Below, piece after piece: positions 18,832 through 39,477 of a stretch of 52,374 nucleotides of DNA (its first letter is position 1; every line of letters begins with the position of its first letter). This DNA is from a virus, in the IMG/VR virus record IMGVR_UViG_3300045988_166745; one strand, given 5' to 3'. A program made the position numbers and the translations under genes. The notes beneath the pieces are model-generated. The model saw nothing but the letters and a program-made list of their open reading frames with translations. It did not search any database and had not been told where the DNA came from.

Positions 18832-20124
18832 GTGATACAAAAAGTTGTATTTCCGCAGAAAAAGCAGTTTCCATTGAAACGAACGGCAGCCTATGCCAGA
18901 GTATCCAGCGGAAAGGATGCCATGCTCCATTCGCTATCATCACAGGTCAGTTACTACAATCAGCTGATTCAGAGCAATCCAGAATGGCTGTTCTGCGGTG
19001 TTTATGCAGATGAGGCACTGACCGGAACAAAAGGAAACCGGGCAGAGTTTCAAAAGTTGCTGAACCGATGCAGACAGGGAGAAATTGACTTGATTCTGAC
19101 AAAGTCTATTTCTCGTTTTGCACGAAACACGGTTACCCTGCTGGAAACGGTACGGGAACTGAAATCGCTGGGCGTTGATGTCTATTTTGAGGAACAGCGG
19201 ATTCATTCCATGAGTTCAGACGGCGAACTGATGCTTTCCATTCTGGCATCCTATGCACAGGAGGAGAGTTATTCAGCCAGTGAAAATCGAAAATGGCAAA
19301 TCCGAAAGGATTTCTCAATCGGAAAAATCGGTAGTATTACGATTTTGGGCTATCGCAGAAATGCAGAGGGAGTCTTGGAAATCGAACCGAATGAGGCAGA
19401 ACTTGTTCGCATGATTTTCTCAGATTATATTTCCGGTATGGGACAACAGAGAATCGCAAATAAGATCAACGAGATGGGAATACCAACTCGACAAGGGAAC
19501 CTATGGACAAACCCAAGAATTCGTGAAATTCTGACAAATGAAAAATACATCGGAAATCTCATGCTCCAAAAGTACTATCGCAATAACCATATCGAAAAGA
19601 AAAAAACGAGAAATCAGGGAGAACTTCCGAAATATTATGTAGAGGAAGCCCACGAGCCAATTATTGACCTTGAAACGTTTGCCAAAGCACAGGCTATATT
19701 GGCTCAGCGACATGAGCAATACACCCATGATGGTGCTACAAACCGTTATCCGCTTAGTGGTCTTATTACCTGTGGATTATGCGGAAAGAACTATCAACGA
19801 AAACAACTCCCACAGGGAATCATCTGGATGTGTGCCACTTTCTTGAGGCGAGGAAAAAAGTACTGCCCCGGTTCAAAGCAAATTCCGGAATCAATTCTAT
19901 ATGCTCTAATCTGTGATGTACTTAAATTGGATGAATTTGATGCGGCTGTATTTCGAGATAACATTCATCACATTGTGATTCCGAAACCGTTTGAGGTGCA
20001 GTTTTTCTTTCACGATGGAACATCTGATATACGGCATTGGAAATACCCATCAAGGGCAGAAAGCTGGACAGAGGAAATGAAACAAGCCGCACGAGAAAGG
20101 AATCAGAAATGGGTCGAAAAGTAA
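18832..20124 (+). CDS. Large serine recombinase 1
   Basis: Resolvase catalytic domain (AAYARVSSGKD…DLILTKSISRFARN…ESYSASENRKW), a recombinase domain and a zinc-ribbon region (CGLCGKNY…). The GTG start is uncertain. Confidence 0.85.
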   Translation: MIQKVVFPQKKQFPLKRTAAYARVSSGKDAMLHSLSSQVSYYNQLIQSNPEWLFCGVYADEALTGTKGNRAEFQKLLNRCRQGEIDLILTKSISRFARNTVTLLETVRELKSLGVDVYFEEQRIHSMSSDGELMLSILASYAQEESYSASENRKWQIRKDFSIGKIGSITILGYRRNAEGVLEIEPNEAELVRMIFSDYISGMGQQRIANKINEMGIPTRQGNLWTNPRIREILTNEKYIGNLMLQKYYRNNHIEKKKTRNQGELPKYYVEEAHEPIIDLETFAKAQAILAQRHEQYTHDGATNRYPLSGLITCGLCGKNYQRKQLPQGIIWMCATFLRRGKKYCPGSKQIPESILYALICDVLKLDEFDAAVFRDNIHHIVIPKPFEVQFFFHDGTSDIRHWKYPSRAESWTEEMKQAARERNQKWVEK

Positions 20125-21686
20125 CTGTAATACCGCCAACAATCAGTCTACAAACGCACCAGCCGACAACACAGAAAGTAAGGCGAAAAGTTGCCGGATA
20201 TGCACGTGTTTCTACAGATTTTGAGGAGCAGCTCACTTCCTACGAGGCACAGGTCGATTATTATACCAAGTATATTCAAGAGCGTGAGGACTGGGAGTTT
20301 GTCAAAGTCTATACCGATGAGGGCATCAGTGCAACCAGCACAGTGCATCGTGATGGATTCAATCAGATGGTGGCAGACGCTCTGGACGGCAAAATCGATT
20401 TGATTGTCACCAAGTCAGTCAGCCGGTTTGCACGAAACACCGTAGATTCCTTGACTACGGTGCGAAAGCTGAAAGAAAAAGGCGTGGAGGTGTTTTTTGA
20501 AAAAGAGGACATTTACACGCTGGATTCCAAAGGTGAACTGTTGATCACCATTATGTCCAGTCTGGCACAGGAGGAGAGCCGTTCCATTTCGGAGAACGTC
20601 ACTTGGGGGCAGAGAAAGCGTTTTGCCGATGGGAAAGTAAGTCTACCATACAAGCATTTTCTGGGGTATCGAAAAGGAGCGGATGGCTTGCCGGAAATTG
20701 TGCCGGAGGAGGCAGAAACTGTTCGCAGTATTTATCGCTGGTTTATGGAGGGCATGACACCATATAAAATCGCTTGTATTTTGATTGAAAAAGGCATTCC
20801 GACACCATCTGGGAAGGAACAGTGGCATCTCAGTACGGTGAAAAGCATTCTGACCAATGAAAAATACAAGGGTTCTGCTCTGCTGCAAAAGAAATTTACT
20901 GTGGATTTTCTTACGAAAAAGACCAAAGTGAATGAGGGTGAAGTACCCCAATATTATGTGGAAGAGAGCCACCCTGCTATTATTCCACCTGAGGAATTTG
21001 AATTGGTGCAGGCGGAAATGGCAAGGAGAAAAGAACTGGGAAAACGCTATCACAGCGGCAATATATTCACAGCCAAAATCGTCTGTGGCGAGTGTGGCGG
21101 TTTTTACGGTCCTAAGATTTGGCACTCTAATAGCCGTTACAGACGTGTGATATGGCGATGCAACAAGAAATATACGAATGATTGTTATTGCAAAACGCCG
21201 CATATTGATGAGGATACGATAAAGCAAGGCTTTTTGAAAGCCTATAATCAGCTACTTACTGATAAAGGGAGCATTTTGAGTCTTTGCGAGATGTTGCTGC
21301 GTGCTTTTTCAGACTGTTCAGATTTGGATGCGAAAATGAGTGTTCTGGATGATGAGGAAAAGCAGATCACAAAAAACATAAGAGAAATGGTTGTGATCAA
21401 TAGTCGAACGGTTCAAAAGCAACCAGAATATACGCTGGAGTACCAATCCTATGAGCGGGAGTACGAGGCGTTGAAAGCAAAATATCAGAAATTGCAGGCT
21501 GAAAAATTAGATCGCATAAATAAAACCACTGTGATCCAAGATTTCATGGAGCAGATAAAAAAGAGAAAAGAGCCGATTAAGGTTTTCAGTTCGGACGTAT
21601 GGCTTGCTGCAATTGAAACAGTGACCATCTGTGAAAAGGGAGAATTGCAATTTCGGTTTAAAAACGGTACTGAAATAACAGTTTGA
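20109..21686 (+). CDS. Large serine recombinase 2
   Basis: Start ATG 20109 overlaps gene 1 by 16 nt. AGYARVSTDFEEQ…DLIVTKSVSRFARN…ESRSISENVTWG, CGECGGFY zinc ribbon and a C-terminal coiled coil. Confidence 0.9.
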   Translation: MGRKVTVIPPTISLQTHQPTTQKVRRKVAGYARVSTDFEEQLTSYEAQVDYYTKYIQEREDWEFVKVYTDEGISATSTVHRDGFNQMVADALDGKIDLIVTKSVSRFARNTVDSLTTVRKLKEKGVEVFFEKEDIYTLDSKGELLITIMSSLAQEESRSISENVTWGQRKRFADGKVSLPYKHFLGYRKGADGLPEIVPEEAETVRSIYRWFMEGMTPYKIACILIEKGIPTPSGKEQWHLSTVKSILTNEKYKGSALLQKKFTVDFLTKKTKVNEGEVPQYYVEESHPAIIPPEEFELVQAEMARRKELGKRYHSGNIFTAKIVCGECGGFYGPKIWHSNSRYRRVIWRCNKKYTNDCYCKTPHIDEDTIKQGFLKAYNQLLTDKGSILSLCEMLLRAFSDCSDLDAKMSVLDDEEKQITKNIREMVVINSRTVQKQPEYTLEYQSYEREYEALKAKYQKLQAEKLDRINKTTVIQDFMEQIKKRKEPIKVFSSDVWLAAIETVTICEKGELQFRFKNGTEITV

Positions 21687-21726
21687 TTCTGAATCGCAGC
21701 ATTATTAATTTTTCACATAAAACGAA

Positions 21727-21761
21727 AAGCAGATTTGTAACATTACACAAATCTGCTTTTT
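21727..21761 (+). terminator. Intrinsic terminator after the recombinase genes
   Basis: AGCAGATTTGT-loop-ACAAATCTGCT-TTTTT. Confidence 0.8.
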
Positions 21762-21764
21762 TGT

Positions 21765-21793
21765 CTTGACTTTGCGAGAAAAATAGTGTAATA
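21765..21793 (+). promoter_or_regulatory. Promoter heading the non-coding/early region
   Basis: TTGACT-17 nt-TAATAT. Confidence 0.6.
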
Positions 21794-21907
21794 TAGATTA
21801 CAAGCAAAACGAATGAATCCGGTGTTCCGGGTTTGTCAAAGGCAGTGGTTACCCACTGCACACCTTTTCGGTACTGTTTGCACACCCCTTGCAAAGGGAG
21901 TGCATGA

Positions 21908-21976
21908 TTGTATCAAAGGTTAAGTGTTTTTCCATAACAGCACTTAACCTTTGATACAAAAGGTTAAGTGCTTTTT
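21908..21976 (+). promoter_or_regulatory. Three-segment antiterminator/terminator switch
   Basis: Segment 1 (21908-21925, TGTATCAAAGGTTAAGTG) pairs with segment 2 (21940-21957). Segment 2 (21939-21951) can instead pair with segment 3 (21958-21970), which is followed by TTTTTT. Confidence 0.6.
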
Positions 21977-22020
21977 TCATGCCATAAAGTAAAAAGTGCC
22001 GAAAATACGTTGGTTTTTGA

Positions 22021-22074
22021 CAAATGCCTGTTCACGTAACGATTCAGTTCGTTGCGTGGACAGGCATTTTTTAT
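22021..22074 (+). terminator. Long-stem intrinsic terminator
   Basis: AAATGCCTGTTCACGTAACGA-loop-TCGTTGCGTGGACAGGCATTTTTTATTTT. Confidence 0.75.
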
Positions 22075-22097
22075 TTTCCAGCCATGCTTGCTAAAAA

Positions 22098-22150
22098 GCA
22101 ATCGTTAAAATTTAAGAGCAATCGTTAAATTTTAGGCAGTAATCGTTAAA
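22098..22150 (+). repeat. Three direct repeats GYAATCGTTAAA at 20-21-bp spacing (operator or iteron candidates)
   Basis: gcaatcgttaaa at 22098 and 22118, gtaatcgttaaa at 22139, immediately upstream of the CDS at 22177. Confidence 0.7.
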
Positions 22151-22176
22151 AGATTGCAGTTAGGGAGATTGAAACC

Positions 22177-22398
22177 ATGAAAGAGCATCAGAAAGAAAGT
22201 GCGTTATACTTGTGCGACCCCAGTAAAAATGTGACTTGCCAAAAGAGCATTTGCCAGTCACAGTGCGTACTTACGACAAAAGTGGAATATGCGAAAGCAG
22301 ACGCCGATGGTAGTCCGGTTATCGTTTACAAGAACCGAATGGAAGCTTTGAGCAGTATCCTCTCGAAAGAAAATGGAACTGCATCCCACGGGGTTTAA
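22177..22398 (+). CDS. Small Cys-rich protein (unknown function)
   Basis: GGGAG lies 9 nt upstream of the ATG. ALYLCDPSKNVTCQKSICQSQCVLTTKVEYA resembles small Cys-rich phage proteins (recalled). The C-terminal end may be fortuitous. Confidence 0.5.
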   Translation: MKEHQKESALYLCDPSKNVTCQKSICQSQCVLTTKVEYAKADADGSPVIVYKNRMEALSSILSKENGTASHGV

Positions 22399-22956
22399 CC
22401 CTCCCCGAATGCCATAGGTGATTACCTAACAATGCCCGTCGGGAGCGTATCCCGACCCACTGCCCGTAAGGGAGAAAATACAACACCTGCTGACCTATCG
22501 GCAACACGGGGACGGTGTGGCAGCATCGTAGGCAATTACCTCCTAACTTTGCCTTTATACTACGCTTTGCGGTGAGCGAATCACCGCATAATGGGATGCG
22601 TCTTAGTTGTCCAGCCAAGATATGAAGCCTCTGGACAATGCACGGTGCAACTCCGTGACAGCTGTCTCCGTCAGGGAGCATTGTCTATTTCGTTTCCGCT
22701 GTCTTGCTGTGCGGTGCAATTCCGTAGCATCCACCAACGCCCGTCGGGAGCGTATCCCGACCCAAGCCTGCCAGCAATCCGTAGACCGTGGATGTAAAGC
22801 AACGGTGTCGGCTGACTTTAAAACCGTGCATTGGTGGCTGCACGTTTTCATGACTGGAAAATCATGCTTCCCGTTGCAGATAGCGATTGCAACACGCTTC
22901 TGAGTCGTTGAGCGTATCAGCGACATCCAACTTACTTTTCATCCTGAAAAGTAAAA
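22399..22956 (+). ncRNA. Candidate large structured non-coding RNA (ROOL/GOLLD-like class, identity unverified)
   Basis: No credible ORF. Four hairpins share a GA-GCGWA-TC apex with different but complementary stems (22438-56, 22569-87, 22743-61, 22904-24). Internal motif duplications and two terminal hairpins with U-rich tails are present. Confidence 0.5.
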
Positions 22957-22978
22957 TAAATGTTAGGAGTGAATCACT

Positions 22979-23176
22979 ATGGAGAACAACAAAAGGGTTA
23001 TTGTGCGGGCTACAGAAAAGTATGAATTTTGCTGCTATCTTTCGGACATGGGAGTAGAGCGAATCTATACGGTACTCGCAGAAAATGAAAAGGATGCTCG
23101 TGAACGGTTTCATGAGTTGCTGAATGAGGAACGAGTGGAATTACTCCAAATCAGAAAGGTGGATGAGGAAAGATGA
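22979..23176 (+). CDS. Hypothetical early protein
   Basis: 65 aa. AGGAG RBS lies 10 nt upstream. Confidence 0.6.
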   Translation: MENNKRVIVRATEKYEFCCYLSDMGVERIYTVLAENEKDARERFHELLNEERVELLQIRKVDEER

Positions 23177-23967
23177 AAGACGGAAATTACTATACCGTTT
23201 ACGGCTGGATGATTAACCGGCTAAAGCTGAAAGGGACAACTTTACAGCTGTACGCAGTGATCTATGGCTTTTCCGAGGACGGTGAAAATGAATGCTCCGG
23301 CAGTCTTGCCTACCTTGCTGAAACGACTGGATGTACCAAACAGACGGTTTTGAATGCCCTGAACAAGCTTGAAAAACTGGGGTATATTTTGAAACGTCAG
23401 ACAAGGGATGATGACGGTGGTTTGCGAAATCATTATCGGGTAAATTTAACCGCAATCGAACAGCGTGTTTCTCCACAAAAAGTGGAAAGCGGCTGTGGAA
23501 AGAATGTTGAAACAAAGGCTGAAAGGCCTAAAAAATTTACCCAGTCGGTCAAAAAAAAGGAATGCCCTCAGCCAAAAAAGAGGAATGCCCCTAGTCAAAA
23601 AACCAGACCGTATAATACTACAAGAGAATCAATAGGTTTTGAATTATGTGAGGGGGACGCACGCTCGGAAAAGCAAACATTTGGTGATTTTCAGAATGTT
23701 CAGCTGACAGAGAACGAATATGCTCGACTGTCAGAATTGTATGGGACACAATTGCCGCAGACAATCAGCAGCTTATCCAGCTACATGGCCTCGACTGGAA
23801 AGCACTACCGCAGTCATTATGCAACACTGTTTCGGTGGTGTCAGCAGGATATGCAGAAAGCAAAAAATCAAAGCCAGCAACACCATGGCTATCGAAATGC
23901 AGAGCGAACCAACGAATGGCTATCGGAAAACCGAGAATTCTTAGAGGCCCTTGGCGGACTTTACTGA
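23173..23967 (+). CDS. Replisome organiser-like protein (winged-HTH N-terminus, DnaD/phage C-terminal domain)
   Basis: YTVYGWMINRLKLKGTTLQLYAVIYGFSEDGENECSGSLAYLAETTGCTKQTVLNALNKLEKLGYI, plus the C-terminal FGDFQNVQLTENEYARL…YRSHYATLFRWC. Confidence 0.6.
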   Translation: MKDGNYYTVYGWMINRLKLKGTTLQLYAVIYGFSEDGENECSGSLAYLAETTGCTKQTVLNALNKLEKLGYILKRQTRDDDGGLRNHYRVNLTAIEQRVSPQKVESGCGKNVETKAERPKKFTQSVKKKECPQPKKRNAPSQKTRPYNTTRESIGFELCEGDARSEKQTFGDFQNVQLTENEYARLSELYGTQLPQTISSLSSYMASTGKHYRSHYATLFRWCQQDMQKAKNQSQQHHGYRNAERTNEWLSENREFLEALGGLY

Positions 23968-28458: not shown

Positions 28459-28617
28459 ATAATATACCGAGCAACGGAGTGATTTGACTACCAAATAGCC
28501 GGATAGTATATGAGACGACTGTTTTATATGCTGTTCGGCTATTTTTGTTTCATATACTTGACTTCACTTGAGTTTTTTTGCAAGCTGACTTCTATCAATC
28601 AGAAAGGAGTCATGTAT

Positions 28618-39294: not shown

Positions 39295-39477
39295 TTGTGT
39301 CTGAAATGCTTCCGGTGGGGGGATAAAAATCGCTAATTGTGAATTTTTTACAGACCGGCGTCCCCTCTCACACACAAAAATCAAGGTTCAAACGGTGGAT
39401 TAACCCAGGAAATATGCAAACAAGCCGAAACCTACGAAGTTTCGGCTATTTTTCTCTCAAAAGGCAGGTGAAATCAG

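Follow-up and report, generated by a model that had tools for sequence, protein, structure and literature searches.

What kind of element fills the 580-nucleotide (nt) gap between two small genes at the head of a phage's replication genes? The gap, positions 22399-22978, lies in IMG/VR virus record IMGVR_UViG_3300045988_166745, a 52,374-nt stretch of DNA (the window, numbered from its first letter) that is a prophage. It separates an open reading frame (ORF) of 73 amino acids (aa), with its stop at 22398, from one of 65 aa that starts at 22979, and it differs from its surroundings in GC content (0.52-0.555, against ~0.37-0.46 in the flanks). An earlier note, made from the letters alone, had read it as a single large ornate non-coding RNA, perhaps of the ROOL or GOLLD type. 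We read the spacer as part of the sense transcript of the prophage's early/replication operon and find it built from independently folding modules. Comparison of related loci, by alignment and covariation, shows these to belong to a family of portable, structured, sense-strand modules that are placed relative to stop and start codons and recombine at their conserved parts. This cassette family circulates among temperate phages of gut Clostridia, and its smallest module, the putative pseudoknot P1, is also found in conjugative elements of several phyla. As to kind, we describe it as a cis-acting structured RNA or modular intergenic repeat, of which P1 is the part most worth following. As to role, we tentatively favour, at a little under an even chance, portable cis-acting leader and intercistronic RNA cassettes that would influence the start of translation or the stability of mRNA while also providing joints for recombination.

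The order of modules in the window is (Bp-A-D)-linker-(P1-P2-P3-C-A-E-terminal hairpin), as listed here (related loci carry handles such as L050).

22399-22429, + strand: Bp, a truncated and degenerate P3-type copy with a small hairpin UAGGU-GAUU-ACCUA (22415-22428; minimum free energy, MFE, -3.1 kcal/mol); its TAGGTGATTACCT repeats the TAGGCAATTACCT at 22529, and it precedes hairpin A in all syntenic alleles.
22430-22459, + strand: first copy of repeat A, holding the 26-mer and hairpin H1, GUCGGGA-GCGUA-UCCCGAC (22438-22456), with a GNRA-like pentaloop and a compensatory GUCUGGA/UCCAGAC version.
22460-22473, + strand: D, a hairpin GCCC-GUAA-GGG with a GNRA tetraloop, supported by pairs in alignment folding (alifold) and a CCC-GAAA-GGG variant in L050; in other phages D lies directly before the A-rich tract, ribosome-binding site (RBS) and start codon.
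22474-22488, + strand: linker AGAAAAUACAACACC(U), the same string that abuts P1 on its upstream side in L009-type phages, beside a divergent gene.
22489-22511, + strand: P1, a putative 23-nt H-type pseudoknot GCUG-A-CCU-AU-CGGC-AACACG-GGG, with covariation across 42 distinct copies.
22512-22529, + strand: P2, a hairpin ACGGUG-UGGCAG-CAUCGU with an invariant loop and four covarying stem versions.
22530-22562, + strand: P3, a hairpin GGCAA...UUGCC with ACCUCC in its loop, followed by UUUAUACUA; a GGUAA/UUGUC variant pairs through wobble (L050, L065).
22563-22734, + strand: C, 172 nt, comprising H2 (22568-22588, loop GCGAA), a long-range helix of GACAAUGC (22634-41) with GCAUUGUC (22678-85), and two 4-bp hairpins.
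22735-22764, + strand: second copy of repeat A (hairpin 22743-22761), which together with the first brackets a 305-nt unit missing from the short allele.
22765-22928, + strand: E, 164 nt, a chain of hairpins: e1b (22777-93), e2 (22825-44, followed by UUUU), e3 (22849-66), e4 (22873-93) and H3 (22904-24, loop GCGUA, conserved U-G pair); the E-end hairpin occurs alone in L050, L052, L061 and L065.
22929-22978, + strand: terminal hairpin (22932-22954), A-rich tract and RBS GUUAGGAG, then the ATG at 22979; this hairpin replaces D in the present lineage.

The region as a whole folds more stably than its dinucleotide shuffles (MFE z-score -4.1 for the + strand, -3.9 for the - strand). Hairpins with a 5-nt GCGNA loop on a stem of at least 7 bp occur nowhere else in the window on either strand, and 20000 shuffles of the region gave one such hairpin 33 times and two or more never. 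The four hairpins with a GCG(N)A apex described earlier (22438-56, 22569-87, 22743-61 and 22904-24) were confirmed, on the + strand and with 7-8-bp stems, as were the remaining helices (22607-14/22631-38; 22825-44, followed by TTTT; 22932-54) and the internal repeats, namely 26 perfect nt within a 30-nt repeat (22430/22735, 97% identical), TAGGYRATTACCT (22415/22529) and CGGTGCAAYTCCGT (22643/22712). The two strands differ: P2 folds at -6.9 kcal/mol on the + strand and -0.7 on the - strand, H3 at -10.1 and -4.9, and in 1.2 Mb of related loci the GCG-loop H hairpins number 128 in sense orientation against 39 in antisense. The claim that the region is a structured plus-strand RNA was borne out by compensatory changes among homologues in P1, P2, H, E and C, together with G-U pairs that are possible only on the + strand. 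Three families of H stems can be told apart, alike only in their GA/UC step and GCG(N1-2)A loop. Within families the stems compensate (GUCGGGA to GUCUGGA; GUCGUUGA, GCCGUUGA and ACCGUUGA, each with a matching 3' arm), and the loops GCGUA, GCGAA, GCGGA, GCGUGA and GCGUUA all sit on covarying stems. The P2 stem has four versions (ACGGUG/CAUCGU, ACGAUG/CAUCGU, GCGAUG/CAUCGC and GCGGUG/CACCGC), with 11 AU and 5 GC at one pair and 12 AU, 2 GU and 2 GC at another. In module E, alifold finds four compensatory pairs (e1b, e3, H3 and columns 39/68), and the long-range helix of C shows an A-U to G-C compensation in L178, a Ruminococcus genome. On this comparative evidence, the modules are real RNA structures on the + strand.

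Some further pairings and likenesses were set aside. An 11-bp pairing of C with E (22636-46/22823-33) has two uncompensated mismatches in L040. A pseudoknot of the H loop (GCGU) with an upstream ACGC would have a third loop of 1 nt, and all its positions are invariant; these strands may instead pair as an alternative hairpin. We treated as chance the 8 nt that H has in common with type I-C CRISPR repeats, and likewise the resemblance of P1 to 16S helix 45 or to the S15 G-U/G-C motif. Two smaller observations concern single modules. The 4-bp hairpins of C (22642-22656 and 22711-22725) have covarying stems, ACGG/CCGU and GCGG/CCGY, and an identical 7-nt loop, UGCAAYU, whose resemblance to a T-loop (U-N-N-R-A) suggests a tertiary or tRNA-elbow-type contact in C. 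In the terminal hairpin the loop reads either CAUCC or, on the same stem, its reverse complement CAGGA depending on the allele (L024, L054 and L067 alleles), which amounts to a hairpin-loop inversion.

To learn how the modules combine, we compared relatives, found by an exact 26-mer of the repeated hairpin in 48 viral contigs and raised to 70 by a second pattern. Twelve syntenic viral contigs, with flanks 94-99% identical to ours, join 22459 directly to 22735 and therefore lack the 305 nt, which in the window are flanked by direct repeats of hairpin A. At 34 loci with the same flanking ORFs the spacer measures 275-277 nt (20 loci), 411 nt (6), 504 nt (1) or 580-581 nt (7); the window carries the 580-nt form, and the commonest allele is ~276 nt. 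The 411-nt allele has no C module, of which other phages hold short (~90 nt) and long forms, and the 504-nt allele (L198) has a 76-nt deletion within E. Relative to the window, phages whose flanks are 96-99% identical are thus short of 305, 169 or 76 nt.

These alleles also bear on whether the spacer could be decayed or unrecognised coding sequence. ORFs of 98-120 aa do overlap the region, among them an antisense ORF (22319-22681, - strand; 100-135 aa by allele) that starts in the spacer, overlaps the 3' end of the 73-aa ORF and is open in all alleles but one (broken in L194). In line with the earlier note, which saw no ORF with an RBS here, there is no credible gene in 22399-22978: the ORFs overlap one another on both strands, none has a match in Pfam or PHROG, and their predicted products are rich in Arg and Cys. 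A conserved coding frame in homologous regions, which that note had named as counting against an RNA, is not kept between alleles. Because the indels (305, 169, 76 and 1 nt) are not multiples of three and no internal ORF has a family match, we take the spacer to be non-coding. The antisense ORF is probably spurious, since its N-terminus, like its length, changes from allele to allele and it matches no family. We find a coding origin scarcely credible.

The same comparison weighs against one large ornate RNA of a new class, folding as a whole in the manner of ROOL or GOLLD. Such an RNA would fit the excess stability of the whole region (z = -4.1), the complex C and E domains with their long-range helices, a 10-bp alifold pairing of hairpin A (UCGGGAGCGU) with ACGCUUCUGA in E, and loops mostly of GNRA type, which typically make tertiary contacts. 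The region also resembles ROOL, GOLLD, HEARO and OLE in its size range, its prophage or Firmicutes context and its many GNRA-type loops, but it does not have one conserved architecture. Alleles of 276, 411, 504 and 580 nt, lacking up to 305 nt, exist within one phage species; modules occur independently of one another; the long-range pairs between modules are invariant or uncompensated; and no promoter or terminator of its own was found. Nor does it match a covariance model. With Rfam 15, cmscan gave no match at gathering score in the whole window, and at E<=10 on 21700-23100 none inside 22399-22978, ROOL, GOLLD, HEARO and OLE included, so the suggested membership of those classes is not supported. 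Eight related loci at E<=1 and a 101-nt stretch around a canonical P1 at E<=10 likewise gave no match to a module, and a scan for transfer RNA (tRNA) and transfer-messenger RNA returned none. We regard a single whole-folding RNA as improbable. Blastn of the region in a distant mode found no match in 50,697 phage records and 72,556 plasmids, and we did not find the motif string, or an intercistronic pseudoknot of mobile elements, described in the literature. The RNA family thus appears to be undescribed in Rfam. A large IMG/VR-based catalogue of unnamed candidate structured RNAs exists and could include these modules (PMC10690425).

Outside this phage species, the modules sit between unrelated early genes across ~70 viral contigs, always on the sense strand, with one to three copies of the element per phage. 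Unrelated phages most often carry a compact cassette of 125-138 nt in which P1-P2-P3-H-D is followed by an A-rich tract, RBS and ATG. This cassette, which brings its own conserved RBS, precedes unrelated genes, for example those for an XRE-type regulator or an antirepressor. In L009-type phages the element comes first after the divergent regulatory region. Combinations include B-A-D, B-C-A-D, B-A-E-D, Bp-A-E and B-Cshort-RBS, among others: C may insert before H and E after H, the E-end hairpin may replace hairpin A, and a short C may run into the RBS. All copies seen at the viral and genome loci examined lie in phage-like or conjugative contexts. All-against-all clustering of the ORFs from 113 genome loci and 70 viral loci, on contigs that are partial, found no protein family present in all.

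The module that tells us most is P1. The pattern GCTGACCTAYCGGCA-N2-8-ACGGGG is present at no fewer than 120 genome loci, in isolates of Bacillota (Ruminococcus, Oscillibacter, Lachnospiraceae) and Bacteroidota (Segatella, Hoylesella, Phocaeicola) and in metagenome-assembled genomes of Selenomonas, Smithella and others; a few GC-rich matches with long gaps resemble chance matches in coding sequence. Its stems are S1, positions 1-4 with 11-14 (GCUG/CGGC, with an invariant U-G), and S2, positions 6-8 with 21-23 (CCU/GGG). Across the 42 distinct copies, pair 1-14 is GC in 38, AU in 2, CG in 1 and GU in 1, and pair 6-23 is CG in 33, GC in 5, GU in 1 and UG in 1. Pairing holds in 99.3% of cells, and none of 500 shuffles reached the covariation score. 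These two covarying pairs fit an H-type pseudoknot of two interleaved helices, although a switch between two hairpins, 1-4/11-14 and 6-12/19-23, would be compatible with them as well.

The position of P1 is constrained as well. AGAAAGGA comes after it, with an ATG 14-16 nt further on, so that P1 lies ~15 nt ahead of the next start. In 84 of 136 cases a spacer of 6-13 nt separates the upstream stop codon from P1, and only 2 cases have one shorter than 6 nt; the sequence of this linker is not conserved. The genes downstream include those for ArdC, SSB, RecT, GGACT, antirepressor, SpoVG, DUF2958 and helix-turn-helix proteins and many unannotated ORFs, a heterogeneous set in place of the single pathway that a riboswitch would be expected to serve. 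At no fewer than 12 loci, P1, RBS and an ORF are followed by P1 again (a leader-only arrangement), so that direct repeats of 23-27 nt flank gene cassettes. Two side observations belong to these loci. At several Lachnospiraceae loci (L074, L075, L078, L116, L152, L156, L163, L177 and L187) the upstream ORF closes, right ahead of P1, with the string (A)TGACYTGCAGRGCWGCTTAA, which could represent a conserved C-terminus or a further RNA element. One P1-bearing locus (L165, 1968-2014) holds a match to the ssNA-helicase RNA motif (RF03070) that is below threshold (34.8 bits against a gathering score of 41.5).

Repeats of this kind raise the alternative that the element works as DNA, as a recombination hot spot, an attachment site or a replication origin. 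Besides the P1 repeats around ORF cassettes, 30-nt direct repeats bracket the 305-nt indel, the spacer lies just upstream of the gene for a DnaD/O-like replication initiator, and two serine recombinase genes are nearby. Yet the conserved G-U pairs would become T-G mismatches in DNA and A-C mismatches in the opposite strand, the orientation always matches that of the genes, and the stems covary while the loops stay fixed. The element is also GC-rich, without an AT-rich unwinding element or iterons (the iteron-like repeats at 22097-22151 lie outside it), and recombination between repeats most plausibly follows from their conservation instead of being what is selected for. We give little weight to a DNA-level element.

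We return to portable RNA cassettes, whose modules would act in cis and post-transcriptionally. While a ribosome terminates on the upstream gene, P1 would stand where the mRNA enters the ribosomal channel, and from there it would gate or couple initiation at the Shine-Dalgarno sequence beside it. With 6-13 nt of spacer, P1 would lie at the channel entrance when the stop codon occupies the A site, a spacing geometry known from frameshift and readthrough pseudoknots. Placed there, P1, whose 3' strand abuts the Shine-Dalgarno sequence, would be met or melted by upstream termination. The stable hairpins with GNRA-type loops may insulate the RBS and protect processed mRNA, a role comparable to that of the 5' stabilisers reportedly described in early RNA of Bacillus phage SP82. 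Because the modules are near-identical between phages, they could also serve as joints for homologous recombination. On this view the 580-nt allele, unusually long, would be two cassettes piled together with the optional C and E added and no gene remaining in between.

Several points weigh against these cassettes acting as proposed. The proposed mechanism draws on position and anatomy only, and the window's own P1 adjoins neither a stop codon nor an RBS and may for that reason be a relic there. The near-invariant loops (P2 UGGCAG; H GCG(N)A; P1 CUA and ACG) are unexplained by an insulator or stabiliser and suggest a specific partner; protein clustering across loci found none. C and E, ~165-170 nt each and internally structured, exceed the needs of an insulator. 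A comparison of P3 loops with their own RBSs gave no significant sign of co-adaptation (-10.4 against -9.9 kcal/mol; p=0.08 by permutation; 34 instances, with noisy start-codon calls). The P3 loop was accordingly rejected as an RBS mask: the window has an 8-bp match of CUCCUAAC with GUUAGGAG, but cognate pairs were not significantly better than non-cognate ones. A bolder version, possible but on the doubtful side, is that P1 is an undescribed cross-phylum pseudoknot of mobile elements, a portable coupling or insulating switch that would decide mechanically, at the terminating ribosome, if the following cistron gets translated, with H, C and E forming a new class of cis-RNA for antitermination or protein scaffolding, whose boxB-like hairpins would bind a phage or host factor.

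For P1, the nearest known parallels are the preQ1-I riboswitch and the leader of T4 gene 32, which are compact H-type pseudoknots beside a Shine-Dalgarno sequence. P1 resembles them in being minimal, with stems of 4 and 3 bp, an A-containing third loop and a 3' strand abutting the Shine-Dalgarno sequence. It differs in being only 23 nt long and at a fixed distance from the upstream stop, and it lies ahead of unrelated genes, so that there is no metabolite logic. The PeSL cassettes of T4-type phages reportedly combine an early promoter with a stem-loop (work attributed to Arbiol et al. 2010). Here, too, we see conserved short intergenic cassettes, direct repeats flanking small early ORFs and modular gene shuffling, whereas no sigma-70-type promoter could be detected within the element and its conserved part consists of a pseudoknot or hairpins positioned by stop and start codons. 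The pneumococcal BOX (boxA-B-C) and enterobacterial REP/BIME sequences are modular interspersed repeats. Ours are like them in having few modules in variable number and order, intergenic and transcribed, with stable RNA hairpins, but unlike them the copies seen are in prophages and conjugative elements, with strict stop/start spacing and no sign of transposase mobility.

The strongest competitor is a cis-acting processive antiterminator RNA, which we consider possible though unlikely. The nascent RNA, perhaps bound by a phage protein at the boxB-like GCG(N)A hairpins, would modify the polymerase so that it reads through terminators in the long early operon, as with canT of Tn916, conAn2 of pLS20, put of HK022 and nut of lambda. 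Large cis-acting antiterminator RNAs do exist in conjugative elements of Firmicutes, canT at 341-452 nt and conAn2 at 260-600 nt (PMC11658703, PMC8191782). Our locus shares with them a non-coding, GC-rich sense spacer (260-600 nt in the likeness; 276-580 nt here) with stem-loops near the head of a long operon that contains terminator-like sites, and with conAn the position after a small first ORF; the L009-type phages, with the element first after the divergent regulatory region, and the one to three copies per phage fit as well. It differs from canT and conAn2 in being modular, variable between conspecific phages and coupled to RBSs and start codons, and antitermination here is putative. Distant-mode blastn gave no match in the plasmid and phage collections, for which the presence of Tn916 and pLS20 is unconfirmed, and conAn2 regions are just 30-40% identical to each other (PMC8191782). 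As for a ConAn1-family protein upstream, the 73-aa ORF had no tblastn match at E<=1 in the 72,556 plasmids and none in Pfam, a comparison at the level of BLAST.

Turning to the phage systems, the likeness to lambda/P22 nut boxB and HK022 put lies in short early-leader hairpins, several per phage, downstream of the first small early gene. With their GCG(N)A sequence the H loops fit the GNR(N)A pentaloop of lambda and P22 boxB, which adopts the fold of a GNRA tetraloop. Here, by contrast, the 7-8-bp stems always close with a GA/UC step, and up to four hairpins stand in tandem. Inspection by eye, without a scan, showed no boxA-like string, no N-like arginine-rich protein was identified in the partial contigs (no search was aimed at arginine-rich motifs), and to our knowledge N-type systems are not known in Clostridia, the hosts here. 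Against an antiterminator of either type, the modules are tied to RBSs and start codons and carry an RBS of their own, conspecific phages lose more than half of the element, and elements also occur in mid-operon between arbitrary genes. Furthermore, no protein family is common to all loci, the family of the 73-aa ORF, itself without a tblastn match among the plasmids or phages, is missing from many element loci, and the region has no blastn similarity to the plasmid and phage collections.

What follows depends on which account is right. Exact matches to the 65-aa ORF beside the spacer occur in 7086 indexed blocks of a public assembly collection, which makes the phage very common, and its early leader carries RNA structures unmatched in Rfam. 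If portable cassettes are the right account, temperate phages and conjugative elements of gut anaerobes share cassettes that set the translation of early and anti-defence genes, and the same cassettes would be joints for swapping such genes, a concrete mechanism for the shuffling of morons and cassettes. They would also offer a compact, host-independent part for synthetic operon design and a simple metagenome marker of the early regions of mobile elements. An antiterminator would mean a new family of antiterminator RNAs in phages of Clostridia. Under either account, the element is not to be filed with ROOL and GOLLD.

The surroundings of the spacer are those of an early operon. Downstream, all on the + strand, lie genes for the DnaD/O-like replication initiator (23173-23967), a family-A DNA polymerase, a primase-helicase and methyltransferases, with terminator-like sites inside the operon at 28495-28542 and 39423-39447. 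A promoter scan of 22399-22978 found nothing inside the element, and it does not end in a U-tract terminator, so transcription would run on into the 65-aa ORF. TATACT after P3 was rejected as a promoter, having no acceptable -35 and an empty scan. Upstream, the earlier note had placed the start of transcription at a promoter near 21765. A promoter-like site, TTGACT-17-TAATAT, is indeed present at 21766-94, followed by a leader of ~140 nt; transcription of the spacer from there is doubtful, because two strong terminator-like hairpins (21939-72 and 22022-69) intervene. The stretch 21766-22075 could itself encode a small RNA of ~180-280 nt; other possibilities are an attenuated leader and insulators placed ahead of the early operon.

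The 73-aa ORF (22177-22398) belongs to a small Cys-rich family with the motif LYLCDPxKNxxCxK and no match in Pfam or PHROG; tblastn gave none at E<=1 in the plasmids or the 50,697-record phage collection. Several unrelated phages (L009, L031, L045 and L047) carry a member upstream of their RNA cassettes, and many others lack the family. Directly upstream of its RBS, AGYAATCGTTAAAW forms three 14-nt direct repeats (22097-22151), 20-21 nt apart, which resemble the operators or iterons of a DNA-binding regulator. Further to the left, two large tandem serine recombinase genes (18832-20124 and 20037-21686; 18832-21686 in total) overlap by ~90 nt, and both encode Resolvase, Recombinase and zinc-ribbon domains. 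Many related contigs match the window only rightwards from ~21932, and in other genomes the same phage adjoins smpB or its own lysis genes, not recombinase genes. The string AAAGGTTAAGTG occurs twice within 21900-21975, flanking a 14-bp hairpin, and this stretch may be the attachment-site junction of the prophage.

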